From the NCBI GenBank assembly GCA_045222195.1, contig JBGUXN010000019.1:1-58225 (forward strand): a stretch of 58,225 nt of DNA, in the 5' to 3' direction. This DNA is from Bacilli bacterium. GTDB taxonomy: Bacteria; Bacillota_I; Bacilli_A; RFN20; CAG-826. Under the pieces are notes generated by a model, which was not told the DNA's origin, did no database searches, and was given only the letters and a program-made list of their open reading frames with translations. Each line of letters begins with the position of its first letter. Positions within the stretch are counted from its first letter, which is position 1. Below, piece after piece: positions 13,440 through 38,002 of the stretch. Made by a program: the position numbers and the translations under genes.

Positions 13440-13442
13440 AAC

Positions 13443-17060: not shown

Positions 17061-17243
17061 TTAATGGCAAGTTAGTTATTTATTATAACTTTGTTATAAC
17101 TATAGTCGTTACTATTAGTAATTTCTGTTTACATCCCCTATTCTGCTTCATGCGAATGCGATATGTTTATCGTACATAATATGTTTTATACTAAAAACAT
17201 TGTGCATTTTATTGTTCGCTGAAATAGAATAATAAGTGGCGAA

Positions 17244-21344: not shown

Positions 21345-21347
21345 AAG

Positions 21348-22109
21348 ATGTTATTTCTCGCTGTTGATGATGAAAACCTCCAACTTAATAAGCTCGTTGA
21401 TGCTTTAAAAGAAGCTGATCCAAGTGCTGAGATCTTATCTTTTAATAATCCTCTAGTGGCCTATGAAGCAGTTAAGAAAGCTAAAATTGATGTTGCTTTC
21501 TTAGACATTGAAATGGGTGGTATGAACGGCGTTGAATTAGGCAAGAAGTTAAAACAACTTAATCCAAATATCAATATCATCTTTGTAACTGGTTATGACC
21601 AATACGCGATTGATGCTTATTCAATGCACGCTTCTGGTTATTTAACTAAACCTGTGAGCGCCGATCGCATCAAAGCGGAACTCGCTAATTTAAGATATCC
21701 AATGCCTGCTACTAATGACCAAAATAAGCTTAGAGCGCAGTGTTTTGGACAATTTGAAGTATTTTATAATAATAAGCCAATTAAGTTCTCTAGAAGCAAA
21801 ACAAAAGAGATGTTAGCGTACTTAATTGATAGAAGAGGTGCGATGGTTTCTGTTAAAGAATTATCAGAAGCATTATTCGGGGAAGATAAGGGTTCATATA
21901 TCAGAAATTTAGTCGCAGATTTAAGCAATGCTTTGAAGGAATTAAATATCGAAGATGCCTTCGTTAAACGCTTCAATTCTTATGGTATAGATATCACTGT
22001 TATTTCCTGTGATTATTATGATTATTTAAAGGGTGAGGCGTACGCTGTTAAGGCATATCGTGGCACCTACATGGAGCAATACTCCTGGAAAAAGATTGCC
22101 ACTTTTTAA
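21348..22109 (+). CDS. Response regulator (receiver + SARP-like winged-helix output)
   Basis: VDDE, FLDIEM, FVTGY, YLTKP; C-term CFGQFEV...KTKEMLAYL...CDYY...YRGTYM. Confidence 0.9.
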   Translation: MLFLAVDDENLQLNKLVDALKEADPSAEILSFNNPLVAYEAVKKAKIDVAFLDIEMGGMNGVELGKKLKQLNPNINIIFVTGYDQYAIDAYSMHASGYLTKPVSADRIKAELANLRYPMPATNDQNKLRAQCFGQFEVFYNNKPIKFSRSKTKEMLAYLIDRRGAMVSVKELSEALFGEDKGSYIRNLVADLSNALKELNIEDAFVKRFNSYGIDITVISCDYYDYLKGEAYAVKAYRGTYMEQYSWKKIATF

Positions 22110-22134: not shown

Positions 22135-22168
22135 AAATGACCGGCCATCAAAGGTCGGTTAATTTTTA
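22135..22168 (+). terminator. Intrinsic terminator after the two-component genes
   Basis: TGACCGGCC-ATCAAA-GGTCGGTTA followed by ATTTTT. Confidence 0.75.
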
Positions 22169-22359: not shown

Positions 22360-22388
22360 TTGATTTTATCTTGTTGCGCTTTTATATT
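22360..22388 (+). promoter_or_regulatory. Candidate promoter of the 11-gene operon
   Basis: TTGATT-N17-TATATT with another TTGTTGCG in the spacer; AAGGAGG RBS before ATG 22422. Confidence 0.55.
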
Positions 22389-22421: not shown

Positions 22422-23111
22422 ATGAATTTAAAAAAGAAAAGTGGTTTAATTAGCGCTGTTATCGCGCTTTCCTGTGCATCATTAGTCTCTGTTGGCTTTG
22501 CTTCCTGGGTTATTTCCCAAGGTGATGCCAAGACAGTTGACGGAAGCATTGTTGTTGATACTGTTCAAACAAAACAACACACAATCACTGTTTCTCCAAC
22601 AACTGGCACACAAATCTGCTTCACAAGACCAGAAACTCCAAGTGCTACAACTTATTCTTGGTTAAGTGAAACAACATCTACTTATGAAAACTTAGTTGCT
22701 TCATTTAATGTTAGCGTTGCCAATGTTGACGGAACTGCTGCTGCCGCGAAAGCCAAATTCAGTGCCACACTCAAATCTGGCGTTGTCAGTGGTGAAAACT
22801 TCACTGAAGACGCTTCTAATGCAGGATATCTTGGTGCTGCCGCCGCTACATATGTTGGCGCTTTACCAACACCAGTCGTTGCTGATGGTTCAGTTTCAGA
22901 TGGCGCATGGTCAACAACCGTGACAGTCACATTCACTTGGGGCGCATACTTTGGAAATCAAAACCCATATTATTTCTATAACGCTCATAAGGCTACTGAC
23001 ATTAAGACCGGCTCAACAACATATGCCGCTGATGCAAACACAGCTTTATCTGCTCTCAATACTTTCTTGAGCGGAATCAGCTACAGATTGTCCTTAAGCT
23101 TTGCTGATTAA
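22422..23111 (+). CDS. Secreted protein with SipW-class-like signal peptide (candidate major fibre subunit)
   Basis: Basic N-terminus, hydrophobic stretch, then SVGFA-SWVIS; Ser/Thr/Ala-rich; FTWGAYFGNQNPYYFY motif shared with the next gene. Confidence 0.7.
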   Translation: MNLKKKSGLISAVIALSCASLVSVGFASWVISQGDAKTVDGSIVVDTVQTKQHTITVSPTTGTQICFTRPETPSATTYSWLSETTSTYENLVASFNVSVANVDGTAAAAKAKFSATLKSGVVSGENFTEDASNAGYLGAAAATYVGALPTPVVADGSVSDGAWSTTVTVTFTWGAYFGNQNPYYFYNAHKATDIKTGSTTYAADANTALSALNTFLSGISYRLSLSFAD

Positions 23112-23123
23112 TAGGAGTTTTTC

Positions 23124-23843
23124 ATGTCAAAAATTACAAGAAGATCCTACAAACGTAAAAAAATCGTAATGGGCATTGCCCTATTAGGTGCTATTGGTTT
23201 AGTATCCACAGGTTTTGCGGCTTGGGTTCTTTCTTCAAATGCCAGTAAAGAACAATCTACTGGTATCAAAGTTGGTGTTGTCGCCGAAAACTCAATGACA
23301 ATTACAAATATCAAAGTTAAAGGCCTCGATACCAAAAGAAGTAGTCCAACATTAGGTGAAGAAATCGAAACCAATGATTTCTCATTCAACCCAAAATGGA
23401 ACGACAATACAGGTCGTGTCCGTTTCGGTGCTGAAGGTGATGATTGCGGTGAACGCTTATCATTAACTATCTCCGGTACTATTACAGAAGCACAAAACCT
23501 CGGTTCATTAACCATTGGACCAAAATCTGTCCCAGATAAAGTTGGCCAAGCAAAAGAAGCGAACTATATCACAGTTCCAGCATGCTTGCTTGATACAGTC
23601 ACTTTAGTGGAAAACACAGATTATCAAATCAAAGTTAACGATGGAATTACTACTGCTGATTTCTCATTCAAAGTGGAATTTGGTTGGGGTTCCTTATTTA
23701 ACGGTATGAATCCAGCGGAATATTATGACGATATGTCTGAAACAGATGTTCCAACTTCTGAGATCAACGACACATTAACCGCGATGCACGGTTTACTCGA
23801 TGGTTTAGAAGTTTCCGTGGAGATTATCGCTCACGTTAACTAA
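23124..23843 (+). CDS. Paralogous secreted protein with SipW-class-like signal peptide (candidate fibre subunit)
   Basis: STGFA-AWVLS junction; FGWGSLFNGMNPAEYY motif. Confidence 0.7.
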   Translation: MSKITRRSYKRKKIVMGIALLGAIGLVSTGFAAWVLSSNASKEQSTGIKVGVVAENSMTITNIKVKGLDTKRSSPTLGEEIETNDFSFNPKWNDNTGRVRFGAEGDDCGERLSLTISGTITEAQNLGSLTIGPKSVPDKVGQAKEANYITVPACLLDTVTLVENTDYQIKVNDGITTADFSFKVEFGWGSLFNGMNPAEYYDDMSETDVPTSEINDTLTAMHGLLDGLEVSVEIIAHVN

Positions 23844-23878
23844 TTATTAAAAACCACAAAATTGATTAATTTATAAAC

Positions 23879-24907
23879 ATGTCCTCAACAGATATTATTG
23901 CACTCATAGTTACAATTATCGGTGTTGCCTCGTTTGCCACAGTCGTCACGATTCTCTTTCGTAACTATATAAGGTCACAGATCAAGGAAATTAATCTTGG
24001 TAATCGCGATATTGAGATTATTGATTTGATGATTTATGAAAGAGATCCAAACGTCATAAAGAAAAGGAAAGCAGGTTCAATAGCGAAAAACGTTATTTAC
24101 TATGCTTTCTTAGCCATTGTTATTCCAGTATTTGGTTTATCCATCTATAGCAGGATTAAAAACAATGTCACTAAGTTTGGTGAAAACTTCGTGATGGTTG
24201 TGGCATCCGGTTCAATGTCACAAAGAAATGAGGCTAATGAATATCTCGTTGAGCATAACTTAACTAATCAATTTAACACGTACGACCTTATTGTCTTATC
24301 AGGCGTTAAGGAAAGTACTACGCTCGCTACCTACGATGTAATTGCCTATAAGAATGACAAACATGTCAACGTCATTCATAGGATTATCGGTATCGATTAT
24401 ACAGAGGGTGAACCCCGCTATATCACGAGAGGGGATTCAAACTCCGCGACAGATACCTACCATCCAAAAAGGAGCGATGTGATTGGTAAATATACGGGAA
24501 AGAGAATTCCAGGAATCGGTATATTTATCATGTTCTTCCAAAGTTACGCTGGAATTGTGACAATCCTCTCTGTCGTCTACTGTTCATTTATGATTTCCCA
24601 CTTTACAAGAAAAATGGACGAAGCCACCGAAGAGAGAAAAGAAATGCTATTACAGCTATTCAATGTTGATGACATGACGGAAAGCGATCCGAAAGTCATG
24701 TCCCTTAGACAACATAACACCATCTTCTATAAAGGCTACGCCTATATCGTTGATCCCGATGGGACGCCATCGAAAAGAGAGATGAACGAGGAAGAGAAAG
24801 AAAAATATGGTGTTAGTGAAGAGCTAATAAAAGTCAACGACTTAGAAGAACAAAAAGAAAATGAAAATGAAAACACCGAAGAAAATATCGGTGAGCAAGG
24901 AGAATAA
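23879..24907 (+). CDS. Signal peptidase I, SipW/ER-type (S26B)
   Basis: VVASGSMS (Ser), VIHRII (His rather than Lys), YITRGDSN...D; flanking TM helices. Confidence 0.88.
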   Translation: MSSTDIIALIVTIIGVASFATVVTILFRNYIRSQIKEINLGNRDIEIIDLMIYERDPNVIKKRKAGSIAKNVIYYAFLAIVIPVFGLSIYSRIKNNVTKFGENFVMVVASGSMSQRNEANEYLVEHNLTNQFNTYDLIVLSGVKESTTLATYDVIAYKNDKHVNVIHRIIGIDYTEGEPRYITRGDSNSATDTYHPKRSDVIGKYTGKRIPGIGIFIMFFQSYAGIVTILSVVYCSFMISHFTRKMDEATEERKEMLLQLFNVDDMTESDPKVMSLRQHNTIFYKGYAYIVDPDGTPSKREMNEEEKEKYGVSEELIKVNDLEEQKENENENTEENIGEQGE

Positions 24908-24911
24908 GATT

Positions 24912-26717
24912 ATGATTAGACCTTATATTACAAGAAAGAACTTAATTGCCATCGCAATTGCGTCCTTATATGCAGTTTTATTTGTCTTTGTCGGTTTATG
25001 TTTAACCGCGACCGAAGACACAGTAATTGCAGAAACAAATATGTTCTTAGGCATGGCTAAAGCCATGGGATTTACAATGATTACTTTCAGTGGACCAAAT
25101 GGGGTGATATCGCTCATTTTGACCGCCATTTACATTGTCGTTTTAGTATTTGGTTTGATCTATGTAAGAAGATTCCAAGTCATTAATAACGTCAAGTGGA
25201 AGAATCCTAAATTATGGTTAGCCTATATCGGAGTGGTCGTAGTCTCCGTTGGTTTATCCATTGGTTTATCTTTATTATTCACACTTGATGATATTGGTAG
25301 TTTCGGCATGATGATGACTTTAATTGGTGAGTCCCTTGCTATCACCTCAATTGCCGCGTTAGGAATTACCGCGATTGTCTTACCAATCTGCATGTTATTC
25401 GTTAACTTCCGTAAAGTTGATAAGCCTTATGCTTTCTTCCATAGTGATAAGTTTGATGACTTAGGCGAAAGAGAAGAAGAACAAGAAGGCGACGTCATTT
25501 CTTCTTTTGAAGGCGAAGAAGAAAAGAACACCACTGTCCAAAACTATATTCAAGGTGCAGTTGGTGATGGCTCAGGCCAAGCGATTGCCTTAGATGGCAG
25601 AGCCAGAGAATTAGATGATAGAGAAAAAGTCTTCCCAGGTCTTTCTAAGATTGACGTTGACTATGATGGTTATTCTATCGACACTATTCCAAGCGATGAC
25701 ATTAACTTGGAACAATTAGTCAATAGATTCAGAAACTATTTAGCCAAAGAAGAAAAACTCTATTACGACATCGATACCATTCGTATCTTTGTTTCTGGGC
25801 TTAACGCTACTAGATTAAGTATTTTAGAAGGTTTATCTGGTACAGGTAAATCATCTTTACCAAGATACTTTGCTAAGTTCATTAACGCTAACGTTACATT
25901 CTTACCTGTCCAAGTTACTTGGAGAGATAAGACCTCTATCTTAGGTTACTTTAATGACTTCTCAAAGATTTATAACGAAACCGACTTCTTACTTAAACTC
26001 TATGAAGCTTCCTATAATCCAGACGCTATCCATATCTTCGTTTTAGATGAAATGAACATCTCTCGTATCGAATACTACTTTGCGGACTTCTTAAGCGTTC
26101 TTGAGTATCCAAGCGATCAATGGAAGATCAGAATTATGCAACTTCCATTTGGTTTCGTCCCACCAGCGAAGTTAGAAGGTGGTTATATCACCATTCCAGA
26201 AAACTGTTTCTTTGTTGGTACAGCGAATAAAGACGATTCTACATTCAGTATCGCAGACAAAGTCTACGATAGAAGTACCGTCATTAGCTTTGATAATAGA
26301 AACGAACCATTCGAAGTCACTGGTGACGCTGGTAGCATCAGAATGTCCTATAGCAAATTAAAAGGTTTATTCGAGGGTGCCACTAAGGATGAGAAATATC
26401 AAATGAGCCAAAGAGATTATGAAAAGCTCTATCAAATCACAGATTACATCTATGAACAATTTGAAGTGGCCTTTGGTAACCGTGTCATGAATCAAATTAA
26501 CGCTTTAGTGCCAATCTTCGTGGCCTCAGGTGGTAAGAAAGAAAACGCTTTAGACTTTATCTTAGCAAGAAAAGTCTTAATTAAATTAGAGGGTCGATTT
26601 GAAGAATTCGTCAAACCAGCCTTAAAGAATATCTTAGACTTATTAGACAAAGTCTATGGGGAAAAGGAATTCCCAATTAGTAGAAAGTTCATCAATAGCT
26701 TAATTAAAAAACTCTAA
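24912..26717 (+). CDS. McrB-like AAA+ NTPase with an N-terminal multi-pass membrane domain
   Basis: About 4 TM helices, acidic linker, Walker A GLSGTGKS, Walker B FVLDEMNISRIEYYFADFLS, GTANKDDST, KVYDR; ATG 24912 after AAGGAG. Confidence 0.88.
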   Translation: MIRPYITRKNLIAIAIASLYAVLFVFVGLCLTATEDTVIAETNMFLGMAKAMGFTMITFSGPNGVISLILTAIYIVVLVFGLIYVRRFQVINNVKWKNPKLWLAYIGVVVVSVGLSIGLSLLFTLDDIGSFGMMMTLIGESLAITSIAALGITAIVLPICMLFVNFRKVDKPYAFFHSDKFDDLGEREEEQEGDVISSFEGEEEKNTTVQNYIQGAVGDGSGQAIALDGRARELDDREKVFPGLSKIDVDYDGYSIDTIPSDDINLEQLVNRFRNYLAKEEKLYYDIDTIRIFVSGLNATRLSILEGLSGTGKSSLPRYFAKFINANVTFLPVQVTWRDKTSILGYFNDFSKIYNETDFLLKLYEASYNPDAIHIFVLDEMNISRIEYYFADFLSVLEYPSDQWKIRIMQLPFGFVPPAKLEGGYITIPENCFFVGTANKDDSTFSIADKVYDRSTVISFDNRNEPFEVTGDAGSIRMSYSKLKGLFEGATKDEKYQMSQRDYEKLYQITDYIYEQFEVAFGNRVMNQINALVPIFVASGGKKENALDFILARKVLIKLEGRFEEFVKPALKNILDLLDKVYGEKEFPISRKFINSLIKKL

Positions 26718-26726
26718 TACTCTTTT

Positions 26727-28055
26727 ATGAAAAGAAGTGAACAAGTCAATTTAACTAACCAGATTGAGACTATTCAAGCTTTTAGCAAAAAGCATAGTGA
26801 CTTATCTAGTTTCTATAAAGAAATCGATAATGTGCCACTGGTGTCGATTCAAGATTTATCATTTGAAAAAGACATTGCTTTATTTAACGAACTCTCATTC
26901 ATTCTTTCGGTTGTCTTATCAATTATCGCTAAGCCACATTTAAACACTAAGAGTGATGAAGTCATCGCTAGAAGCGGCGAAGTCAGCGCGTTAAGCGAAG
27001 AAGATTTTCAAAAGACTCTAAGAGATTCTTCCATATGGAGAAATCAAGGTAACGGTAAGTTATTACCAGAATACCTCTATTACCATAAGCACGAAGATGA
27101 GATTAGAATCTATGAAAATATTTTCATCGTTTATTTAGTCAATGAGATTAACGCGTTAGCGCATCAATATAGTGCTCTTTACGTTTCTTTATTAAGCGTC
27201 GCGGACCATGAAACTAATGTCTTATTAATTGATGATACCTATCAAATGAAAGCGATGGATGAAGTCAATAATGTTCTTCATCGTATTGAGCAAATTAAGA
27301 ACACTTATTTCTATAAAGAAGTGAGTAAAGCTAAATCTAGACCAAAGGTCTTTAGTCCAACGAACATCTTACTTAAAGATAGACTCTATAATATTTGCTT
27401 TAAGTTCTATAAGAAGTTCTTCATCCATCAAGAAGAAGGCTCCTTAGATCAAGACTTATTTATATATTATTATGTTTTAATTTTAAGAAAGTTACGCGAG
27501 AACGACTTTAGACTTAAAGAAGGTAAAGAAAAGATCTTCTCTAATGGTAAGTTAGCCATTCCAGAAAAGATTGCTTTAGCTAATAACAACTATCAAATCG
27601 AAGTGGAATCTAGAATCGATAAGAATTTATTCATCTTTAACTATAGTGAACATGATGGGTCTAATAAGGCCACTCACTTACTCTATATTAGAAGTGATGA
27701 TAATGCTCCATTTGAATATGAAGATATTGGTCCAGATTACTTCGTAGTATCTATTGAAACATTATCATTATGGTATTTATCAATGCTCTTAAATGAAAAA
27801 CTCGTGAAGATTAATAAGACCTTCAAGAGTGAAATGGAAATGATGCGTACATTTGTGGATTCTCACCACTACGTCGTATCAGCTTCCGAAAAGATCTATT
27901 CATCATATTGCCCATCTTGTAAAGGCAAAGATTTATCAGAAACGAATGGTTTCTATGTCTGCGCTGATTGTGGCGCAGTCTACCGTTTTGTTAAAGACAA
28001 ACAAAATAGAGGTCATATCGTATTTAGTAACTTAATCAATTATGGAAGAAAATAA
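26727..28055 (+). CDS. DUF2357/McrC-like protein with C-terminal Zn ribbon; nuclease motif not evident
   Basis: IYENIFI and PTNILLKDRLYNICFKFY resemble DUF2357 motifs; follows the McrB-like gene; CPSC...CADC at the C-terminus. Confidence 0.7.
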   Translation: MKRSEQVNLTNQIETIQAFSKKHSDLSSFYKEIDNVPLVSIQDLSFEKDIALFNELSFILSVVLSIIAKPHLNTKSDEVIARSGEVSALSEEDFQKTLRDSSIWRNQGNGKLLPEYLYYHKHEDEIRIYENIFIVYLVNEINALAHQYSALYVSLLSVADHETNVLLIDDTYQMKAMDEVNNVLHRIEQIKNTYFYKEVSKAKSRPKVFSPTNILLKDRLYNICFKFYKKFFIHQEEGSLDQDLFIYYYVLILRKLRENDFRLKEGKEKIFSNGKLAIPEKIALANNNYQIEVESRIDKNLFIFNYSEHDGSNKATHLLYIRSDDNAPFEYEDIGPDYFVVSIETLSLWYLSMLLNEKLVKINKTFKSEMEMMRTFVDSHHYVVSASEKIYSSYCPSCKGKDLSETNGFYVCADCGAVYRFVKDKQNRGHIVFSNLINYGRK

Positions 28056-29232
28056 ACTAGTTAAAGAAGCTCCACAAGAGGAAGCTCAGGAAGAAAAGAA
28101 AAAGAAAACAATATTAATCGTCGAAGACGAAGATATTTCTTATGAAATCTTAGCCACGATGCTCAAGGATGATTATGAAATATTGCGCGCTAATAACGGC
28201 GATGAAGGTCTCCGCATTTTAAGAGCGCAAGCTAAAGACATCTCTTTAGTGTTGCTCGATATTTTAATGCCGGTCATGGATGGCTTAGAAATGCTCAAAG
28301 TCAAAGTCGGAGAAAGAAGAATCGCTAATATTCCTGTCATTGTTTTAACTAGTGAAAAAGCCATGGAAGTCGAAGCTATCAGAATGGGCGCTTTGGACTT
28401 CATTAAAAAACCATTTGAAAGCCAAGAAGTCATCAGAGCGAGAGTTTGGAGAATTGTTGATTTATATGAAAGACATAAAATCCAAACTACAGACCCAAGT
28501 GAAGATATTCCAGCGATTAAGATTGTGGACCTTTATAAATCATATGGTCCAAAAGAAGTCTTAAAAGGTTTAAACCTTGAAGTCTTTAAAGGCGAATTAT
28601 TCGGTTTTATTGGTCGAAATGGTATTGGTAAAAGTACCACTATCGATTGCATGATTGGTGTTAAGAGATTTAACTCTGGCACGATTGAAATTGAAGGCTA
28701 TGACATTACAAAAGAACCTTTAATTGCCAAGTCTAGATTTGGATATGTCGCTAGCGAACCAACGTGCTATGAAACGATGACTGGTTATGAGTATTTAGAA
28801 TTCATCGCTTCCGTTTATCAAATCAGCGAAGCGGAATTTGCCTCTAACGTCGAATATTTAACTAAACGTTTAGTGCTTACAGATGAAGATTTAAGCAAAT
28901 ATATTTCTTCCTATTCTCATGGTATGAAGCAAAAACTATGTTTAGTGGCTTCATTACTCAATAATCCAGACTTATGGATTTTAGATGAACCAACCGTCGG
29001 TCTTGATATTATGGCGGTTGAAGAACTCAAAAAGATGATGAGAGAATACGCGAATCATGATAAGTGCGTCTTTATTACCTCTCATAACATCGATATCATC
29101 GCCAAGATCTGCGATAGAGTGGCCATCATCAATGATGGTAAAGTCGTCGAATTAATGGACTTAAATAGAGATCCAAATAAGAGATTACAACTCGGTCGTA
29201 TCTTCTTAAACATTTTTGGAGCTAATCAATAA
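28042..29232 (+). CDS. Receiver domain fused to an ABC transporter ATPase
   Basis: ILIVEDE, LLDILMPVMDG, FIKKP; then GRNGIGKST, YSHGMKQK, ILDEPTVGLD, ITSH. Confidence 0.92.
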   Translation: MEENKLVKEAPQEEAQEEKKKKTILIVEDEDISYEILATMLKDDYEILRANNGDEGLRILRAQAKDISLVLLDILMPVMDGLEMLKVKVGERRIANIPVIVLTSEKAMEVEAIRMGALDFIKKPFESQEVIRARVWRIVDLYERHKIQTTDPSEDIPAIKIVDLYKSYGPKEVLKGLNLEVFKGELFGFIGRNGIGKSTTIDCMIGVKRFNSGTIEIEGYDITKEPLIAKSRFGYVASEPTCYETMTGYEYLEFIASVYQISEAEFASNVEYLTKRLVLTDEDLSKYISSYSHGMKQKLCLVASLLNNPDLWILDEPTVGLDIMAVEELKKMMREYANHDKCVFITSHNIDIIAKICDRVAIINDGKVVELMDLNRDPNKRLQLGRIFLNIFGANQ

Positions 29233-30827
29233 TGTTATCTTTAATCTTCAAAGACTTTAAATTAATCTTTGCAGGTACCCAACAAAATAAGTTAGGTAAG
29301 TATTTAAGCTTGCTCTTCACTATCGTGGTGGGAATTTTATTTATTGTCATTGAAGTGTATTTATTCCAAGCAATCTTTACCAAGATGGAAGCGGTTAAGG
29401 GTGCGAGTAGTTCTTACTTCACTTTGTTCCTATTTATCATTTCTACCTTGTTAACTATCTTCTGCACATTCACGGCGATGAAGTTATTCTTTAACTCCGT
29501 TGATAACGTGAAGTTAAGTGCTTTACCAGTTAGTGAATCAAAGATTGTCTTATCTAAATTAATATTCTTATTCATCACCATGTATGCGATGAATTTAACA
29601 TTCAACTTACCGTTATTTATCACCTATGGTGTGATCTATAGGAAGATGTTCTCTTTCTACTTTAATGCGGTATTTTATCCAGCCTTCCTCTTCTTCTTCC
29701 AAGCAGGGGTGGCCTTATTACTTGTTTATCCAGTGAAGTTATTACTTAACTTCTTAAAGAAGCATATCATTGTGCAGTTTGTGGTCGTCTTCATTCTTGC
29801 CTTTGGTTTAGCCTTCCTTTATTCACAAGCTTTGAACTTATTTATCAATTTAGTGGCTAATAACAATATTTCGCAGTTATTCACCACTGATACGATTAAC
29901 GCGGTTAATTCAGCATCTAAATTTATGGTTCCTGTTAACTTCTTAGTGGAAGCATTTGTGAATAACGTTAGAACGGCGATATTCCCATCAATCGCTATTT
30001 CTATTGGTGTATTTATCATCGGTTTATCAGTAGCGATCTACTTCTATAACAAGTTCTTACAAAACTTCACTAACGATACAAGAAGTATTAAAAAAGAATC
30101 TTTAAAGATGGTAAGTCCTACAAAAGCACTTATTAAAAAAGAATTAGTGTTACTTCTTAGAAACTCTAACTTCATCTTTAGCTTTACTGGTTTATTAATG
30201 GTTGAACCATTCTTAAGCTATTTAATCATCAAATCAATGAACACTATTTTCACATCTGGTTCTCTTGCTTACTATTTAGCCAGTGTGCCAAACATCATCG
30301 CTTTTTTAGATGTCATGTTAATGATGTTAATTAGTGCGATTATCTATCAAGGCGCGAACGCTTATATCACTAATGAAGATAAAGCGGTGAGATTAATGAA
30401 ATCCATGCCAGTATCTTCCTACAAGCAATTAGCAATTAAAGTTTTAATCCCACTATCGATGTCTTTAGCGGCTTTACTCATTAGCTATATCTTATTAGCG
30501 GCCACTCAGACATTATCAATCATTCCAACATTATACGGATTATTAATGAACATTATCTTTATAGTTACATTATCTATAGTTTCTTTATTTGAAGAATTAC
30601 ATGTTAAACGCTACCAAGAAAAGAATACCTTATTAAGTGGTATCTATACTTACGCTGTTCCAGTAGTCTACTTCTTATTAGCGTTATTACTTTGCTATTT
30701 CCAAGTGAACTATCACTTCATTTTCCTCATCGGTTTAGGAGTGGTTATTCTTTCACTTGTTCCATATATGATTAAGTTTAAAGAGAGGGTGGACAATGAT
30801 TTCCTTTCTTTGGAGGTCGCTAACTAA
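29232..30827 (+). CDS. ABC-2-type exporter permease (about 12 TM)
   Basis: Two hydrophobic halves with LSALPV..SKIVLSK and LMKSMPV...QLAIK motifs; translationally coupled to the ATPase. Confidence 0.85.
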   Translation: MLSLIFKDFKLIFAGTQQNKLGKYLSLLFTIVVGILFIVIEVYLFQAIFTKMEAVKGASSSYFTLFLFIISTLLTIFCTFTAMKLFFNSVDNVKLSALPVSESKIVLSKLIFLFITMYAMNLTFNLPLFITYGVIYRKMFSFYFNAVFYPAFLFFFQAGVALLLVYPVKLLLNFLKKHIIVQFVVVFILAFGLAFLYSQALNLFINLVANNNISQLFTTDTINAVNSASKFMVPVNFLVEAFVNNVRTAIFPSIAISIGVFIIGLSVAIYFYNKFLQNFTNDTRSIKKESLKMVSPTKALIKKELVLLLRNSNFIFSFTGLLMVEPFLSYLIIKSMNTIFTSGSLAYYLASVPNIIAFLDVMLMMLISAIIYQGANAYITNEDKAVRLMKSMPVSSYKQLAIKVLIPLSMSLAALLISYILLAATQTLSIIPTLYGLLMNIIFIVTLSIVSLFEELHVKRYQEKNTLLSGIYTYAVPVVYFLLALLLCYFQVNYHFIFLIGLGVVILSLVPYMIKFKERVDNDFLSLEVAN

Positions 30828-33322
30828 TGGCTTCTAAGAAGAATCTCGTTGTATTACTTATCATGCCTTTTGCCATCTCTATTCTTTCGTTTACCGCGAT
30901 TAATATGACTTTTAATTTAATCGATAACGATATTTTGAATATTGATTGGGATTATAAAGACAATGAGTCCTTCGCTTTAACCGATAATCAATACGCGCAT
31001 AAATTAAAAGCCACAGCGATTAACGATAGAAATTATCCAACCGCTCAAACATTAGTGTGGTCAGTTTATAACGCTGATGCAGCGGACTTAGGCAATCACG
31101 CTGAAATCGTCACTAAAGGTAGCGAATCATATTTACATACCTTAAGCGTGGGCAATGTTGTTATTACAGTATCTAACGATAAAGGCAATGTCCAAAAGAA
31201 GATGAACGCCATTATCTATAACAATAACGTTATTCTCTTTAATACCACCACTAAGGGATCGCAATCTAATGTTGATTCAACAATGTACTACGGCGAATAC
31301 GATGTGAACGATAGAGGCACTAAAGTATTATCTTCATTTGGTTATACCTTAGAGAGTGATTGCTTGAACCATGATTCTAAAGTCATCTTAATTGATAACT
31401 CCACGAATGTCAGTGTGGACACCGTTAAGAATGTCGTCTCATTTAAGTCCGCAGGTGATGCCTACTTAACATTTGGTTTTGATAGTCCAGCGTACACTGA
31501 TACATATACCTATAACTTCAAAATTGTGGAAGATGGTGTCAATGTTTATGATTACGATGATTTGCTCTTCTGCACCAATAAATCACAAAATGGCGAAATC
31601 GCCGTTTTAAGACGTCATTTTGAATCTTTAAGCAATACATATGTCTTAGATAGTAATGGCCGTCCTACAAGCCAAAAAAAGAACAATGAGACCGAACTAT
31701 TTGGTAAGTATAGCAACGGCAAGTATTCTTTCAAGAATGAGATCTATCAATTTGAAACAAAATACAATCAAGAATTCATTAAACAGTGGAATGAATTCGC
31801 TAAGAATAATTCTGGATACGAACCAGTCACTGATAAGGTCAATGTTGGTTTACATGTGCAAAAAGACTTCTACGGTAATGGCTTCACACTCAATTTACAT
31901 AACTTAACTTATCCATATCAAACGATGTCCGTTATTGACCAAGACGGCAATACACAAATTGTGCCTAAGTTAAGTGAAGATAACTTATTTAGAGGACCAT
32001 TACCTTACTATACCTTAGGGGATCCAAATAACATGCCACTTGTGACCGCTTATGGACAAGACAATATTGGTATGTACGTCGAAGGTGAAGATATCACCAT
32101 CAACGATGTCAATATCAAGAACTGTGACTTTGGTAATAACTTAGCGAACTTAGATACCGTTGGTACAGTCATGGAAGTTTATGGTTCTAACATCACTGTT
32201 AAGAACTCAAGATTATCAAACGGCAAGACAGTATTTAGAAGCTTTGGTGATAAAACCAGGGACAACGCTAATATCGTATTAGATAACTGTATGCTCTCTT
32301 ATTCCAGAAACTTCTTAGTCAGTTCAGGCAACTATAACTTCAACAAAGTTGATGGTTCTAGAACATATCAATTCGTCCATGAAGATGGAAAGAGAGAAAT
32401 GCATAAGATTGATGACTATCTATCCGACACTAAAGTGGATGGCAAGAAGTCATTAGGCGACCAAGCCCTTGAAGATTACTTGATGGGCGTCGACAAAGGC
32501 TACTTATTAGAAACCATGAGATCAATCCAAAATGGCTTAGACCTCGCTAGAACACCTGGTAATAGATACTATGGAGACTTAACCATTAATGACACATTGT
32601 TCTACCGCTCAGGTATCTCAAGCATCGCACTAGAAAGCTTGTTCAATGGTCCATTCCTCTATAACGCCACTCCAACACTTGTTGGCGAGATCTTTGCTAA
32701 AGCGGAAGGCCTATTAGACAATACAAGCCTTGTACCATTGCTTCCAAGACAAGTTGGAGGTATCTCATTCCCAGTTGAGATAAAACTCTCTGGAGAAACA
32801 AAGTTCTACGATTACAAGACATCAAACTTATTTGATATCAATGGCCTCGTAGGCGAACACATCTCAAATATCATTGGAACATACGCGCCCGAATATGCCG
32901 GTCTAATTAGTTTAGATAGGATATTCCCAATCAAAGATGTCTTGTTAGAAGACGGAGGCAAGTTAGGCGCAGTCCTCAAGGCTGATGGATCAAACAACCT
33001 TAATGTTCCAATCGCCTTCTACGGAGGTGGCATTAACATCTCTAGAGTGACTTGCGATGAAACATTCACTTATAGAGAGCACTTAATCGATTTGGATAGC
33101 GATGATTCCAATGTTGACGCAATGGATGTCGACTTCCTGAAGGCCTACGCCAAGATTCCACAAGCAGGTGATGGCATTATGGCTAACGCGGCAAACATCG
33201 TTCTCAAATGTGTCACCATCGTCTCAGGATTCAACCCATTTAAATTCACATTAGCCAAAGGTGATGGCTACTTATACAACGAGGCACCAAAGGTGCAAGA
33301 CTTAATCAATAACGCCAAGTAA
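30827..33322 (+). CDS. Large membrane-anchored or secreted protein, probable Ig-like plus beta-helix regions
   Basis: N-terminal hydrophobic anchor; FYGNGFTLN, ITINDVNIKNC, NITVKNSRLSNG, IVLDNCMLS parallel beta-helix-like repeats. Confidence 0.65.
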   Translation: MASKKNLVVLLIMPFAISILSFTAINMTFNLIDNDILNIDWDYKDNESFALTDNQYAHKLKATAINDRNYPTAQTLVWSVYNADAADLGNHAEIVTKGSESYLHTLSVGNVVITVSNDKGNVQKKMNAIIYNNNVILFNTTTKGSQSNVDSTMYYGEYDVNDRGTKVLSSFGYTLESDCLNHDSKVILIDNSTNVSVDTVKNVVSFKSAGDAYLTFGFDSPAYTDTYTYNFKIVEDGVNVYDYDDLLFCTNKSQNGEIAVLRRHFESLSNTYVLDSNGRPTSQKKNNETELFGKYSNGKYSFKNEIYQFETKYNQEFIKQWNEFAKNNSGYEPVTDKVNVGLHVQKDFYGNGFTLNLHNLTYPYQTMSVIDQDGNTQIVPKLSEDNLFRGPLPYYTLGDPNNMPLVTAYGQDNIGMYVEGEDITINDVNIKNCDFGNNLANLDTVGTVMEVYGSNITVKNSRLSNGKTVFRSFGDKTRDNANIVLDNCMLSYSRNFLVSSGNYNFNKVDGSRTYQFVHEDGKREMHKIDDYLSDTKVDGKKSLGDQALEDYLMGVDKGYLLETMRSIQNGLDLARTPGNRYYGDLTINDTLFYRSGISSIALESLFNGPFLYNATPTLVGEIFAKAEGLLDNTSLVPLLPRQVGGISFPVEIKLSGETKFYDYKTSNLFDINGLVGEHISNIIGTYAPEYAGLISLDRIFPIKDVLLEDGGKLGAVLKADGSNNLNVPIAFYGGGINISRVTCDETFTYREHLIDLDSDDSNVDAMDVDFLKAYAKIPQAGDGIMANAANIVLKCVTIVSGFNPFKFTLAKGDGYLYNEAPKVQDLINNAK

Positions 33323-33331
33323 AGGAGAGAA

Positions 33332-34411
33332 ATGATTATGAAGAAATTAGCAAAAGTATTAGTATTAACCACAATGTGCTTAGGCATGCCACTACTCAAT
33401 GCATGTTCATTCTTTAGAAGTAACAACAATGGTGAAAATGGTATTAAAAACATTGAAGTTACTCAAGATGAATTAGGTAATGCCATTATTACCATTCACT
33501 ATACCGATAGCACTAAGAAACCAGTAACCTTTACTCTTCCAAAAGGCGAGAACGGTCAAGATGGCGCCGGTATTAAAAGAGTGGATTACACCTCTGATGA
33601 ATATGGCGTCACCACAGTCACCATTACATTCACCAATTCTTTAGATCCAGTTTCATTCACCTTACAACCTGGTAAGAGCATTGCGGACGTTAAATTCGAA
33701 AAAGACGAATCAGATAACACTTTGATTATCTTTATCGATAGCGATGGTAATGAATTATCACCAATCACAGTTTTCAAAGGCGATACAGGTGAACAAGGCG
33801 TAGGCATTATTTCCATCATTTCTAACTATAACGCCGATGGTAGCGCCACATTAACTCTCACCTTAACCGATGAATCGGAATATAACGTTGATATTCCTGC
33901 ACCAAAGGAAGGCAGAGGCATTGAATCAATCATCACTAGAAAAGAAGGCACAAAAGTGTTCTTAGTGATTACATATACTGACGATACATCTGAAGAAGTT
34001 TCCTTCGATGCTGCACCATCATGGACAACAGGCAATGCTAAACCTGGTGATGGTTTCGGATACGACGGAGATTATTACTTCGATATTTCCCATGACATCA
34101 TTTACATCAAAGAAAACGGCATTTGGACAGTCGCAGTCGACTTTAATACAAACTCCGCTGAATACTCAGTCATCTTCGAATTAAATGACACCACAGCTGA
34201 ACCAGCTACATTTGCAGTTGGACAACGCTCATATGTCATTCGCAAAGGTGAAACATTCTATTCATCCAATTTAGACATGCCAGTTCCAACAAGATCTGGA
34301 TATACATTCGGTGGATGGTACACATCCTCAACTCCAAATGTCACACATGGTGCTTTCAATAACTTAACACCAGTTTTGAGTGATATGACTCTATACGCTA
34401 AATGGAATTAA
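33332..34411 (+). CDS. Lipoprotein with short Gly-X-Y/beta repeats and a C-terminal InlB B-repeat-like domain
   Basis: Lipobox LNAC; recurring G..G.GI..I...G...TI.(Y/F)T(D/N) units; PVPTRSGYTFGGWY...DMTLYAKWN. Confidence 0.8.
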   Translation: MIMKKLAKVLVLTTMCLGMPLLNACSFFRSNNNGENGIKNIEVTQDELGNAIITIHYTDSTKKPVTFTLPKGENGQDGAGIKRVDYTSDEYGVTTVTITFTNSLDPVSFTLQPGKSIADVKFEKDESDNTLIIFIDSDGNELSPITVFKGDTGEQGVGIISIISNYNADGSATLTLTLTDESEYNVDIPAPKEGRGIESIITRKEGTKVFLVITYTDDTSEEVSFDAAPSWTTGNAKPGDGFGYDGDYYFDISHDIIYIKENGIWTVAVDFNTNSAEYSVIFELNDTTAEPATFAVGQRSYVIRKGETFYSSNLDMPVPTRSGYTFGGWYTSSTPNVTHGAFNNLTPVLSDMTLYAKWN

Positions 34412-34443
34412 TTAAGATTAATTAGATTATAGAAAGGATACAC

Positions 34444-35085
34444 ATGAGAGGTAAGCCAATTAGAAACAAAAATAAGATTCTAGTCGCATTAGTGGCTCTT
34501 TTCACCATGCTCATGTGTACATCTGTCGGCTTTGCCGCTTGGATCACTACTGGTGGTAGTAACGCTACTGCTAACGGCACTATTGATGCCGATACAGTTG
34601 AAGGTGGAGGCGGTAGCCACACTCCACAAAATCTTGATGTCGTGACCATCACAAACGTTGATGAATATCAATACTATGCTGGTAATGGTTTCGTCAATAA
34701 TGGCGTTTATGATGACGAATGCTATCTCACCGGTTCTTGTTCTTTCAATGCCACTAATGGCAAAAAGTGTTTTACAAGTTTCAGAGACAGCAACTCATTC
34801 AAGCTTGATGTTGAACTATCAACAACAGCAAGCGGTGGATTATCTGGCTTGAACATCACTTCTAGTGAAATCTCTTTGACAAGCACAAACTTCACTGTCG
34901 GAAGTCAAAATCCAACTGATTCAACAACGATTACCACCACATTCACCATTACTTGTGGCAGTAACGAATCAGATTTCACTTTTGATTTTTCTGTGAAACT
35001 AGTATATGGCGAAACATTATCAAGCTTCCCAGATTTAAGTTCCGCACCAATCAGCATTAAATTTACACCAAAGGAGAACGCATAA
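34444..35085 (+). CDS. Third secreted protein with SipW-class-like signal peptide (candidate minor subunit)
   Basis: SVGFA-AWITTGGSNATANGTIDADTV parallels SVGFA-SWVISQGDAKTVDGSIVVDTV of 22422. Confidence 0.7.
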   Translation: MRGKPIRNKNKILVALVALFTMLMCTSVGFAAWITTGGSNATANGTIDADTVEGGGGSHTPQNLDVVTITNVDEYQYYAGNGFVNNGVYDDECYLTGSCSFNATNGKKCFTSFRDSNSFKLDVELSTTASGGLSGLNITSSEISLTSTNFTVGSQNPTDSTTITTTFTITCGSNESDFTFDFSVKLVYGETLSSFPDLSSAPISIKFTPKENA

Positions 35086-35086
35086 C

Positions 35087-37966
35087 ATGAGAGCGATTAA
35101 ACGTATTGCGTCTATATTCATGTTCATGGCGTTCGCTATTGGTGGAGTAGCAGAACTCGCTAAAGCAAGTTGGACAACTGGCGATGGAAACGGAAATGAT
35201 AACGCCAATCCTGTCAGTGAAGCCTTTACAAGTTCAGCGCAAGAACCTATCTGCTATAACGCTTCCACAAACGTTAAATATCCAACCATTTATGGTGCTT
35301 TAAATGCAGCAACAAGTGGTCAAACAATCTATGTATATCCTTCACTACATCAGAATTCCACAGTTGTCAGCGGTTCTCCAACTTTAACAACATATGTAAC
35401 AGAGACTAACAATCTTGTTATTAAAAACGGTGTTACACTTGCCCTACCATTCAGTGGCACTTCTGTATCAGAAATGAATACAAGCACCATGCATAACTTT
35501 AGTAACAAATCGAGAATTGATACCAACCTAACTAATGTCCATAAAAATAGAAAAATCTGTTTGAACATGAGAGAAGGCGCGGACATTACCATTCAACAAG
35601 GTGGTACCTTAACCATTGGTGGTAAGTTCTATCAAACTGGTGTCTGTTTAGAATACTGTGAAATTAATTTAGGTTCAGGTTCTTCTATTGCGTGTAACGG
35701 AACTATTAACTGTTATGGCGTTATTAAAGAGCAAAAAGATAGTACAAACACCACATATGACACCACAACATACGGAAACACAAATGACTCAGGCAGAAGC
35801 GTCATCATTTATAGTGGAAGCACACTTAAAACTTACATCTGCTTAAAAGACGCTAAATCAGGTGCCACCATTTTGTCATATAACGATGAGGGCATTTGTC
35901 CATTTAATACGTATGACTTCCCTGGCATTCAAACCTTTATGTCTGTTAAATACGGTGCAACAGTTACTGCCTATGCAGTCATGTTCATTTCTTCTACAAC
36001 TGTTTGCGAATCATTTACCGTCATCAACAATGGATCTTCCGATAGTATGTTCCAATTAAGCAGCGGAGCATCCATTGATGTTGAATACGTGCCTAAGGAT
36101 GCTGAATACTTCACAGGTGCTACTAACACCTGCACCAAGATTTGTATCAATGGTACCGTTAGCCTTGGCAGAATCAAGATTACTGTTAGCGGTCAAAGCG
36201 TTGACACAAATAACTTCTTCTTACCAATCGGCTACAATATTAAGATTGCCGTTTTATCCGGTGGTAATTTACAAACTTCAAAGAGAGTTAAATTCCTCCC
36301 AGGTAGCGAACTCCACGTTAGAAACAATGGTACATTTACTTTCAGCAACCAAGTAACATTCTATAGAGTCGACAGACTTCCATCATCATGGTCATATGGA
36401 AACAAGACCAATGATGCAGTTTTAGAAGTTAATGGTAGCTTAGTGGCTAGTGGTACTTCCGCTGCTATCGGTGCAAGAATCACTCACTCCAGTACCGGTG
36501 GTACAGGTTCTCTTAATTTATCCGCTATTTCTGCCCAAAGTAAATTAACTGTTTCTACAATTGAAGAAGTTAATGGCGCGGATATCAGCGTAACATCAAT
36601 CGGCTTATTCAACATGAATGGCGAATATGTTAACGCTCAATTCAAGAGTGGCCAAACATATACAAGTGGCTATGCAAGCAATAACTACTATTGGAATGGC
36701 GAATACATCGATTCAAGCGATATCACATTCATCATTGCTGAAGCAAGCTTCACACGCAAACTCATTTCTTATAGTGTCTATCAAGGCACCACAAATAATG
36801 CTTCTAACCAAGAAGTGATTGCTGAAGATGTCACAGAAGCTAGATCTTATCCATTCAAGACAAGCAACTACATCCACATCACAACCAAGTATGGCTGTAC
36901 ATTTACTGCAACCGATAGCGCTGGTAACCCAATCACTATCACTAATGGTTGGATTAGATTCTCCGGTGATATCACAGTGACAATTAACCCAGTTGAAGCG
37001 GTTAACTTCCAAATCTCCACAGAGTCTAAGAGTGGCGCTGGTTATTTGACATACAACGTGAAACTCGGTCCAACAAGCGCGGTAAGTGAAACCACTATAG
37101 ATACTTCTAGTGCTAACCAAACCATCACAATGCCAAAAGGCTATTACATTAGAGTCAAGATGCAAGGTTCTGGTGGTTCATATTCATCGCACACCATTAA
37201 ATCAGGAAGTGAGAACTTACCAGATGGCTTCACACACGACAAAGCCGTTCGTGTTAACGGTGATGTCCATGTCCACTTCGACTTCACTGCGGGCTGTATT
37301 ACCGCTGATGCTTTGGTGTTACTCCCAGATGGCACAACCACAAAAGCGGAAAATCTCCATATTGGTGATTTAGTGAAGACATGGAGTTTTGAAACTGGTG
37401 GCTGGGTCGTTGAACCTATCATCTTCTTAGAAGAAATTATAGATGTTCATACAAGAGTTATTACATTGACATTTGATGACAATAGTTCTATTGATGTCTG
37501 TTGGAAACAAGGATTCTTTGATACCGACTTACTAGACTACTTCGTCGTCAACGACGATAACTATCAAGATGCGGTCGGAAGAAATGTCCTCGCGTTCGAC
37601 GGAGATACTCCAGTTACCAAGAGAATCGTCTCCGCAACAAGCGAAGTGAAATTAACATCGACGTATGAAATTCACTCAGGCCATGGCTATCAAATCGTCG
37701 CTAACGATATCTTAACTATCGAACCATTAATTAACGAACATGTCTGGTTCACCGTTAATGAAGATTACAAGTATGACGAAGAACTCATGAGACAAGATCT
37801 TGAAACATATGGTGTCTTATCATACGAAGCATTTGCTGATTATGTCACTGAAGAACAATACGATCTCTTCAATGGTCAATACTTAGCGGTACCAATTGGT
37901 AAAGGCTACTTCACTCTTGAAGAATTGATGGAAATCATCAAACACTTCTTACCAGGTAATACCTAG
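35087..37966 (+). CDS. Large adhesin-like secreted protein with a C-terminal Hint domain
   Basis: Signal ending LAKA-SWTT; Ser/Thr/Gly-rich beta-solenoid-like body; G-CITADALVLLPDG...AENLHIGDLV...YEI...IVANDILT Hint pattern from Cys737 (nt 37295). Confidence 0.8.
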   Translation: MRAIKRIASIFMFMAFAIGGVAELAKASWTTGDGNGNDNANPVSEAFTSSAQEPICYNASTNVKYPTIYGALNAATSGQTIYVYPSLHQNSTVVSGSPTLTTYVTETNNLVIKNGVTLALPFSGTSVSEMNTSTMHNFSNKSRIDTNLTNVHKNRKICLNMREGADITIQQGGTLTIGGKFYQTGVCLEYCEINLGSGSSIACNGTINCYGVIKEQKDSTNTTYDTTTYGNTNDSGRSVIIYSGSTLKTYICLKDAKSGATILSYNDEGICPFNTYDFPGIQTFMSVKYGATVTAYAVMFISSTTVCESFTVINNGSSDSMFQLSSGASIDVEYVPKDAEYFTGATNTCTKICINGTVSLGRIKITVSGQSVDTNNFFLPIGYNIKIAVLSGGNLQTSKRVKFLPGSELHVRNNGTFTFSNQVTFYRVDRLPSSWSYGNKTNDAVLEVNGSLVASGTSAAIGARITHSSTGGTGSLNLSAISAQSKLTVSTIEEVNGADISVTSIGLFNMNGEYVNAQFKSGQTYTSGYASNNYYWNGEYIDSSDITFIIAEASFTRKLISYSVYQGTTNNASNQEVIAEDVTEARSYPFKTSNYIHITTKYGCTFTATDSAGNPITITNGWIRFSGDITVTINPVEAVNFQISTESKSGAGYLTYNVKLGPTSAVSETTIDTSSANQTITMPKGYYIRVKMQGSGGSYSSHTIKSGSENLPDGFTHDKAVRVNGDVHVHFDFTAGCITADALVLLPDGTTTKAENLHIGDLVKTWSFETGGWVVEPIIFLEEIIDVHTRVITLTFDDNSSIDVCWKQGFFDTDLLDYFVVNDDNYQDAVGRNVLAFDGDTPVTKRIVSATSEVKLTSTYEIHSGHGYQIVANDILTIEPLINEHVWFTVNEDYKYDEELMRQDLETYGVLSYEAFADYVTEEQYDLFNGQYLAVPIGKGYFTLEELMEIIKHFLPGNT

Positions 37967-37973
37967 AAAAAAT

Positions 37974-38002
37974 AAATCCACTCAGCAATGGGTGGATTTT
38001 TT
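37974..38002. terminator. Bidirectional intrinsic terminator
   Basis: AAATCCACTCA-GCAA-TGGGTGGATTT with A/T runs on both sides, between convergent genes. Confidence 0.85.

Follow-up and report, generated by a model that had tools for sequence, protein, structure and literature searches.

Under the name CoCoPALM, a clade has been described whose McrB GTPases carry a fused FtsB-like transmembrane (TM) and coiled-coil domain and in which McrBC is tied to signal peptidases and pilus assembly (Bell et al., 2024, eLife, PMC11090510). That paper gives CoCoPALM two sentences and defers the remainder to a later paper; the pilus role is a prediction. A literature search found CoCoPALM only in this paper and its preprint, with no follow-up, and nothing further that links McrBC, pilus assembly and signal peptidase, or SipW and McrB. 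Fibre operons of another kind are tapA-sipW-tasA of B. subtilis and sipW-bsaA-bsaB-bsaC of C. perfringens, in which a dedicated SipW-type peptidase is encoded beside small secreted proteins whose signal ends combine a small −1 residue with an aromatic P2′ residue. Their products are reported to polymerise by donor-strand exchange (PMC9674648, PMC10151520, PMC7395162, PMC11580942), and TasA is reported to require SipW because of a Phe at P2′ (PMC10269814). These operons are not known to hold an McrBC-like pair, an ABC transporter or a Hint protein. Here, we analyse an 11-gene cluster at 22422–37966 of contig JBGUXN010000019.1 (C19; assembly GCA_045222195.1), from a Bacilli bacterium (RFN20; CAG-826). 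The whole contig, 58,225 nucleotides (nt) with a G+C content of ~36%, is the window of this study; the source genome is a bin of 1.45 Mb in 61 contigs, rated 77% complete. The cluster fits best as a CoCoPALM variant combined with the theme of SipW plus substrates. We lean towards reading it as an accessory machine that, in an uncultured and probably wall-less gut bacterium with a small genome, builds a structure on the cell surface, for which a fibre or an adhesin-bearing appendage is the likeliest form.

The 11 open reading frames (ORFs), here called g1 to g11, are tightly packed and all lie on the + strand. Their gaps measure 12, 35, 9, 9, 32 and 1 nt and their overlaps 47, 14, 1 and 1 nt, which agrees with an earlier sequence-only reading of this DNA that had reported 11 co-oriented genes with gaps of 35 nt or less. 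The 47-nt overlap between g3 and g4 vanishes if g4 starts at the in-frame ATG at 24912 (residue M18), at about the position where its orthologues begin. The genes are listed below with their lengths in amino acids (aa); an arrow marks the predicted cut at a signal end.

22422–23111 (+), g1: candidate secreted subunit, 229 aa; signal end SVGFA↓SW; one N-terminal TM helix
23124–23843 (+), g2: second candidate subunit, 239 aa; signal end STGFA↓AW; n-region KITRRSYKRKK
23879–24907 (+), g3: S26B (SipW/archaeal-type) signal peptidase, 342 aa; extra TM helices and a conserved cytoplasmic tail
24861–26717 (+), g4: membrane McrB-like AAA+ nucleoside triphosphatase (NTPase), 618 aa; probable start 24912; ~4 N-terminal TM helices and an acidic linker
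26727–28055 (+), g5: McrC-like partner, 442 aa; DUF2357-like N-domain and C-terminal four-Cys zinc ribbon
28042–29232 (+), g6: fusion of a REC domain and an ATP-binding cassette (ABC) ATPase (DrrA/GldA-like subfamily), 396 aa; Response_reg E = 5e-20, ABC_tran E = 2e-25
29232–30827 (+), g7: polytopic permease, 531 aa; ~12 hydrophobic segments
30827–33322 (+), g8: anchored extracytoplasmic protein, 831 aa; N-terminal TM helix and large conserved body
33332–34411 (+), g9: lipoprotein, 359 aa; lipobox LLNAC, G-x-x-G-x-G-I repeats and Listeria-Bacteroides repeat (Flg_new)
34444–35085 (+), g10: third small secreted protein, 213 aa; signal end SVGFA↓AW; match to the subunit profile with E = 2.9e-23
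35087–37966 (+), g11: large secreted protein, 959 aa; signal end AKA↓SW; C-terminal Hint-like module from C737 and a conserved tail of ~90 aa

The presence of a SipW-type peptidase, as claimed in the sequence-only reading, is borne out by g3. The protein scores 67.7 bits against TIGR02228 (cut-off 51.85; 64.4 bits in the genome search), and all 42 aligned g3-type sequences share residues S112 (in SGSM), M113, H167, R168, G185, D186 and D192 without exception. We take S112, H167, D186 and D192 to be the catalytic positions, as assigned from SipW work. Against NF046067, the Bacillus SipW equivalog, g3 reaches 65.4 bits where 190 are needed; judged by its sequence, it is the same type of enzyme as Bacillus SipW but not its orthologue. 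A bacterial-type signal peptidase I is encoded on contig C37 of the same genome (60.3 bits, cut-off 47), so that g3 is an extra, dedicated enzyme beside a housekeeping one. A 143-aa S26-like match on contig C2 was set aside; it has no TM helix and its neighbours are other genes.

Four products of the cluster, g1, g2, g10 and g11, carry the A-[SA]-W signal ends that had been ascribed to them. Each begins with a charged n-region and one hydrophobic helix, which leads to VGFASW in g1, TGFAAW in g2, VGFAAW in g10 and AKASW in g11. If the cut falls after G-F-A, the P2′ residue is W; the inferred site in g1 is A27↓S28. Judged by eye, the window motif G-F-A-[SA]-W resembles the canonical SipW-type end GGTFAAW, which, like GGTYALF, adjoins other SipW genes in this genome and its relatives. 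In the subunit family (n = 76), the signal-end block (positions 23–32) is the best conserved part, with 3.12 bits per column against 1.4–1.7 in the mature body and with G25, F26 and W29 at least 90% conserved, and the shared signal end is therefore not a matter of chance. TIGR04088, the profile of SipW-cognate signal peptides, matches none of the four proteins, and its sole match in the whole genome is a substrate on contig C29 (14.7 bits, below the cut-off of 19). A genome-wide regular expression for the motif was crude and gave 14 matches, several of them plainly false.

The mature parts of the small secreted proteins form a family of their own. The sequences of g1 and g2 are 25% identical, and a second conserved block, F-x-W-G...N-P..Y-Y, lies near the C-terminus of the g1/g2 family. 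A g10-type gene is usually paired with a g11-type gene. The family comprises 2755 clusters at 50% identity, none with an assigned function; g1 has no match in Pfam, NCBIfam or the PDB, and a sequence-profile search of the PDB with the family profile returned chance matches only. The earlier description of these subunits as TasA-like finds no support in sequence: none of the 76 family members is matched by Peptidase_M73 (PF12389), a search of the genome with this model came back empty at E up to 1, and the canonical TasA-like proteins at 15 loci of relatives are missed by the family profile. Among 301 sampled genomes, PF12389 was found in nine, with only the first 50–90 profile positions matched, and no full TasA profile could therefore be built. 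Similarity to the TasA operons thus ends with the peptidase and the signal: unlike their products, g1, g2 and g10 show no resemblance to Peptidase_M73/TasA. Of 60 genes that immediately precede SipW, 25 carry the cytoplasmic n-region motif of g2, and none of 50 g1-type genes does; considered as a general handle for a cytoplasmic motor, the motif was downgraded because it is confined to a subclade (25 of 60 loci).

Directly downstream of the peptidase gene lies an McrBC-like pair. The sequence-only reading had placed both members in the membrane, which holds for g4 but probably not for g5. Residues 1–185 of g4 comprise ~4 hydrophobic helices, then an acidic linker, and these precede the NTPase domain, which from the sequence would sit on the cytoplasmic side behind the helices. 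The N-terminus has no match to a DNA-binding family and contains the hydrophobic helices instead. The motifs Walker A (GLSGTGKSS), Walker B (VLDEMN) and N456-K-D-D are invariant in seven of seven sequences. The N-K-D-D motif fits the pattern 'NxD followed by a second D' reported for CoCoPALM; it also aligns gap-free with N-T-A-D of E. coli McrB, with equal spacing to the next conserved D. A profile of the seven proteins matched four PDB chains at E up to 1. The top three are E. coli McrB (6hz4, 6ut6 and 7vsr; E from 8e-4 to 2e-3, the best being 6hz4 at 8e-4), and the fourth, FlhB (E = 0.15), is taken as a chance match. Against Pfam AAA_5, g4 reaches only E = 0.099.

The partner protein g5 scores 22.6 bits against DUF2357, the N-terminal domain of McrC (cut-off 23.3), and two of its six orthologues match this family, the best with E = 1.1e-8. 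Its residues C395, C398, C412 and C415 are invariant and constitute a zinc ribbon. No PD-(D/E)xK nuclease motif was found in g5, and residues 248–394 hold no invariant position across the six orthologues; PADLOC gave no match, and a profile search of the PDB gave zinc-ribbon or chance matches only. From its sequence, g5 is probably cytoplasmic, and the McrB-like g4 is accordingly the sole membrane-bound member of the pair. The Walker A and B motifs and the N-x-x-D region are shared with McrBC type IV restriction, and the partner comes close to the DUF2357 domain of McrC. In contrast to restriction systems, g4 has TM helices in place of a DNA-binding N-domain, g5 lacks the PD-(D/E)xK nuclease, and the neighbours encode secreted proteins rather than methyltransferases or nucleases.

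The arrangement of these genes is conserved. Among 61 related genomes, relatives of g4 occur in 43 and full-length matches in 7 (the window's own included), spread over six genera and four families. All six foreign loci, from other genera and four families, have the subunits, g3, g4, g5, g6 and g7 in the same order, and g8, g9 and a g11-like gene are present wherever the contig continues. The profiles of the subunit family and of g8 each match 8 of the 61 genomes, of which seven are exactly the set with full-length g4 and the eighth is a weak, partial match (G043 for the subunits, G060 for g8). In genome G045, a g8-like gene (E = 3e-194) and a subunit-family gene at ~100904–110395 of contig C1, on another contig than the first copy, form an apparent second copy of a window-type module.

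A scan of public genomes, made with an alignment as query and one genome per species, returned at least 599 stretches, 587 of them confirmed and most of these in metagenome-assembled genomes from the gut; g4 alone as query against genome contigs gave no match. Synteny was counted in the best 80 of the at least 587 public loci, using only those with enough flanking sequence. A subunit gene lies upstream of g4 in 65 of 71 loci, g3 directly upstream in 70 of 75, and g5 is present in 77 of 78; on the downstream side, g6 is present in 72 of 75, g7 after g6 in 67 of 70, g8 in 64 of 67 and g9 in 59 of 62. Because these loci were chosen by their likeness to g4 and are interrelated, the counts apply to a single subtype and should not be treated as independent trials. 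The 80 loci come from records of uncultured Bacilli, Mollicutes, Acholeplasmatales, Anaeroplasmataceae and similar metagenome-assembled genomes from the gut. The predicted coupling of the McrB/McrC-like pair to SipW and the A-[SA]-W genes has thus withstood the comparison, in gene order as in co-inheritance. Within the window's genus, the cluster was found in only 1 of the 23 genomes searched, the window's own, which marks it as an accessory and patchily distributed unit. Relatives of the McrB-like gene occur in 90 of 399 sampled genomes of the phylum and are concentrated in families with small genomes.

The same genome encodes a second, paralogous set of SipW, substrate, TM-McrB and McrC genes on contig C56 (~1554–17459; locus L100). 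It includes a SipW-like peptidase of 283 aa, an McrB-like protein of 505 aa with one TM helix and a charged helical stretch, and an McrC-like protein of 922 aa with a long charged helical region; the charged helical stretches were judged by eye. In the NTPase domain, the McrB-like protein is 41% identical to g4. The set also comprises a c_272-type protein, two EAL-domain proteins and, encoded between the latter, a PNP_UDP_1 protein. Its four secreted substrates have signals ending ...GSISGTFAWYQY or similar (...GT[FI]AWYQY) and a W-L-E-G-W/E-D motif near the C-terminus, and their profile gave only chance matches in the PDB. The same make-up was found at 7 of 12 further loci. An NTPase-domain tree unites the C56 and window types (support 100/100) and sets a third type of ~900 aa apart from them. 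Representatives of such distant, TM-fused McrB-like proteins of ~900 aa were seen at loci L109, L110 and L111 (genomes G003, G053 and G008), each with an McrC-like partner of 496–509 aa; no SipW gene or SipW-type substrate lies within ~10 kb of them. BLASTP (E = 1.1) gave no ground for deriving the multi-TM domain of g4 from a fusion of the small 3-TM protein found in the C56 system, and this origin was rejected.

Of the two sets, that on C56 is closely like CoCoPALM, with one TM helix and charged helices on the McrB-like protein, a charged McrC-like protein and a SipW-like peptidase. The window cluster shares with CoCoPALM a TM-bearing McrB-type NTPase, an McrC homologue without a working nuclease, an adjoining signal-peptidase gene and a predicted pilus role. 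It differs in that g4 combines ~4 TM helices with an acidic linker and shows no coiled coil on inspection by eye, that g5 has a zinc ribbon where the CoCoPALM McrC has a coiled coil, and that the ABC ATPase and permease, g8, g9 and the Hint protein are additions to what is published. The assertion that no described system has this combination therefore stands only in part: CoCoPALM systems had already been named, though they were not explored there (PMC11090510). The new elements are an McrB-like protein with several TM helices and no coiled coils, an McrC with a zinc ribbon, the module of ABC genes, g8 and g9, the Hint protein and a substrate family without known relatives.

Downstream of the McrBC-like pair, the ABC_tran ATPase g6 adjoins the polytopic g7, and the two make up an ABC transporter. 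Against TIGR01188, g6 scores 179 bits, which is below the cut-off, and no subfamily cut-off was reached; g7 matches no family in Pfam or NCBIfam. The fusion of a REC domain to the ATPase recurs in only 1 of 80 other loci. The two proteins proposed as anchors, encoded from 30827 and 33332, have the expected features, an N-terminal TM helix in g8 and a lipobox in g9. Homologues of g8 number at least 791; among 120 listed, all are annotated 'hypothetical protein' and none has a Pfam domain, and a profile search of the PDB with g8 gave no significant match. The Flg_new repeat of g9 matches with E = 4e-11 (TIGR02543, 31.4 bits), and four g9 orthologues (L014, L017–L019) have a Cys after the signal.

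Membrane anchoring would make sense in this lineage, since neither a sortase nor a penicillin-binding protein (PBP) transpeptidase (PF00905) was found in the source genome (77% complete). The PBP transpeptidase is present in 16 of the 61 genomes; it was found in 0 of 22 other genomes of the genus and was not found in 34 of 36 other genomes of the family, and other families of the order do have it. The lineage is probably wall-less.

The large secreted protein g11 has a C-terminal module that resembles Hint domains. A weak Hint match covers residues 734–788 (E = 0.006; 16.5 bits, cut-off 29.7), and intein_Nterm gives E = 0.011 (16.7 bits, cut-off 24.5). Weak Hint matches were found in three of six orthologues, and one of the six, at locus L062, reaches 32.2 bits against Hom_end_hint (cut-off 32.1). 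C737 is invariant in all seven sequences, g11 and its six orthologues, which share [GST]-C at the start of the module, blocks like those of Hint and, after the module, a conserved tail of ~90 aa. In these features they are like the Hedgehog/Hog-type Hint modules; they differ in that the family scores lie below or just at the cut-offs and that the window copy has Q for a conserved His. In two genomes of one genus (G042 and G058), a secreted protein of 884–889 aa with weak likeness to g11 is encoded between the SipW and McrB-like genes (L016, 5172–7841; L017, 15738–18392; − strand).

The borders of the cluster are marked by the following features.

20058–22109 (+): LytS-type histidine kinase and response regulator; His_kinase E = 3e-22 with HATPase_c, Response_reg E = 1e-22
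22138–22161 (+): terminator-like hairpin 3′ of the two-component genes; 9-bp stem with five GC pairs and a T-rich tail
22360–22388 (+): promoter-like site TTGATT-17-TATATT in the 312-nt gap 5′ of g1; 9 of 12 consensus matches
37974–37999 (+): terminator-like hairpin 8 nt past the g11 stop; 11-bp stem followed by a T run

A promoter region upstream and a terminator downstream had been claimed, and the layout is as described, with both calls being consensus matches only. The promoter call is weak, as the region holds 33 promoter-like sites where 59 are expected from shuffled sequences. An Rfam search found no match within the cluster and no riboswitch or leader 5′ of g1. The sole Rfam match in the window is the ribosomal protein L10 leader RF00557 at 4491–4613 (−), with 49 bits (gathering score 44). 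The two-component genes are possible regulators of the cluster, from which they are separated by the terminator-like site. Together with the REC domain on g6, they suggest local signal control. Large proteins with a terminal VanZ-like membrane domain are encoded on both flanks, at 17244–20042 (+) and 38001–39860 (−); the former also carries three Big_2 domains and a hyaluronate-lyase N-terminal beta domain.

Two RNA libraries from sheep gut contain contigs, 90–99% alike, that cover parts of 22453–30899 with g1 and g3–g8 and span the g4/g5, g6/g7 and g7/g8 borders. This is a weak hint that the cluster is expressed, and a contig that crosses two genes in RNA libraries does not prove a single transcript. 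In a bovine-gut DNA run (X2, 90% likeness), g2–g8 are covered at 90–99%, and contigs join across most of g1 (22525–23109) and across g10–g11 (34517–37360). These joints, unreliable as they are in metagenomes, suggest that the exposed components differ between related strains. No weight was placed on bins without RNA contigs (most of 30900–38500) or on the low cover of g1 and g9–g11 in X2.

Type IV pilus loci bring together presubunits anchored in the membrane, a peptidase dedicated to them, a hexameric NTPase of the cytoplasm and polytopic partners in the membrane. The window cluster is like this machinery by functional analogy only, with no homology; it differs in having an S26B peptidase on the outer face and Sec-type rather than class III signals. 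In the reading we favour, g1, g2, g10 and g11 would be exported by Sec and held in the membrane by their special signal peptides until the dedicated Ser/His peptidase g3 cuts after G-F-A, leaving W at P2′ at a position where TasA, too, has an aromatic residue. The freed N-terminal stretch (W-V-I-S ... G-N-I-x-V-x-T-V) could then link subunits by strand complementation. On the cytoplasmic face, g4 would form a membrane-anchored ring of the McrB type whose hydrolysis is stimulated by the nuclease-less g5, and the pair, with g3, would serve as an assembly or hand-over motor, comparable to the ATPase, platform protein and prepilin peptidase of type IV pili. Cooperation of g4 and g5 with g3 is suggested by the g3-g4-g5 order, which is fixed and recurs in two divergent types of system. 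The transporter g6/g7, the tethered g8 and the lipoprotein g9 may constitute a base or a module for export or mechanotransmission, g11 would be a large functional end piece, presumably an adhesin, whose C-terminus is cut or transferred by the Hint module, and the REC domain of g6 and the upstream two-component genes could place the process under signal control. If a fibre is formed, it would belong to the same broad class as archaeal bundling pili and thread filaments, with Sec-exported subunits, an archaeal-type signal peptidase and donor-strand filaments; the abstracts on those filaments describe no McrBC or ABC partners (PMC9245690, PMC9715654).

The assembly of a fibre or appendage is independently favoured by Bell et al. 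(2024), who tie this McrBC clade to signal peptidases and pilus assembly. What the sequences show is the proteins, their order and their strict co-inheritance; fibre formation and the role of the NTPase, like the ABC step, are what we infer. Several observations weigh against the fibre. TasA-type fibres assemble extracellularly and are not known to need a cytoplasmic motor. The conserved cytoplasmic part of g2 is limited to a subclade (25 of 60), and the RNA-library contigs may be DNA-derived and stem from relatives rather than from this strain. At 10 loci, close relatives of g4 and g5 are found with no SipW gene or such substrates within ~10 kb, and some of these loci nest within the window clade of the NTPase tree; the link between SipW and g4/g5 is thus strong but not absolute. 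The block-B His is present in six of seven g11 sequences and replaced by Q in the window copy, so that the Hint module of the window may be less active. Substrates of the window type and the C56 type align over the signal peptide only (hhalign probability 47.5%, 29 columns), and a common mature fold of the two was rejected as unshown for this reason.

Two further counts in that balance, the CBM26 protein of this genome and the isolation of the subunit family, also form part of the case for a non-polymeric function, in which the cluster would export, process and display individual surface proteins, be they adhesins, binding proteins or enzymes, on a cell that has no wall, and the McrBC-like pair and the ABC transporter would act in membrane quality control, in release, or in clearing cleaved signal anchors. 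A third SipW-like peptidase of this genome, 348 aa, is encoded on contig C29 (locus L101, 2615–6889, −) between substrates ending GGTFAAW and GSVFAAY, with no McrBC-like genes nearby. One of its substrates (386 aa) carries a CBM26 starch-binding module, which means that the SipW-type signal also serves proteins other than fibre subunits. For the subunit family there is no match to a pilin, to TasA or to any other known family, binding-type repeats (Flg_new or Big_2) occur on g9 and on the orthologues of g11, and the PBP transpeptidase and sortase were not found. Yet each locus encodes several small paralogues with a strongly conserved N-terminal mature stretch and a C-terminal motif, which is the usual make-up of major and minor subunits, and the clade is read as pilus-linked by Bell et al. 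(2024), itself a prediction. We consider separate display a possible but rather unlikely account of the cluster.

The cluster could also consist of two co-travelling units, g1–g5 with SipW, McrBC and substrates, and the ABC genes with g8 and g9, which would export or remodel, for example, a glycan or lipid. C56-type systems have SipW, McrBC and substrates and no adjacent ABC genes, and at three loci (L089, L090 and L097) the order is g3-g4-g5-g9-x-x-g6-g7-g8, with g6-g7-g8 shifted as a block. Such independence is hard to reconcile with the strong matches of g8 and the subunits, which fall in precisely those 7 of 61 genomes that have full-length g4, and with the retention of g6–g9 in 59–72 of 62–75 loci, and we regard a composite of this kind as quite improbable. 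A role of g4/g5 in defence against phage or in other conflicts, as a system of the McrBC/CoCoNuT type that merely sits in, or guards, a surface-protein island, is very improbable: g4 does match PADLOC PDC-M26A (E = 7e-40, confined to the GTPase domain), has McrB as its only meaningful solved relative and belongs to a cluster as patchy as 1 in 23 genomes of the genus, but it is membrane-anchored, g5 has neither a nuclease motif nor a PADLOC match and no other nuclease domain was detected in the cluster, the pair is fixed between SipW (70 of 75) and ABC genes (72 of 75), and a C56-type McrB is found in 21 of 22 other genomes of the genus, unlike a defence island.

The assembly of a fibre or adhesin-bearing appendage can be extended to a bolder scheme that we hold to be unlikely as a whole, in which an McrBC restriction motor is recast as a new kind of membrane assembly engine for Sec/SipW fibres with an ABC base, acting on the signal-anchored presubunits from the cytoplasmic side, and the Hedgehog-like Hint module and tail of g11 covalently transfer its C-terminus to a membrane lipid or to the fibre. 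Where the literature has only named the link, the window presents it as a concrete 11-gene variant with full synteny, and the same genome adds a paralogous system. Residues open to testing are S112 of g3, the Walker A lysine of g4 (GLSGTGKS), the inferred A27↓S28 site of g1 and C737 of g11. If the bolder scheme is true, it would add a further route of bacterial pilus formation to the chaperone-usher, sortase, type IV and curli-type routes, and transfer by the g11 Hint module would substitute for sortase and cell wall in wall-less gut bacteria. If the reading we favour is right, the cluster would represent the way in which many uncultured, often wall-less Bacilli of the gut and rumen make adhesive surface structures, and it would be a clear case of a defence-type NTPase recruited for work in the cell envelope.

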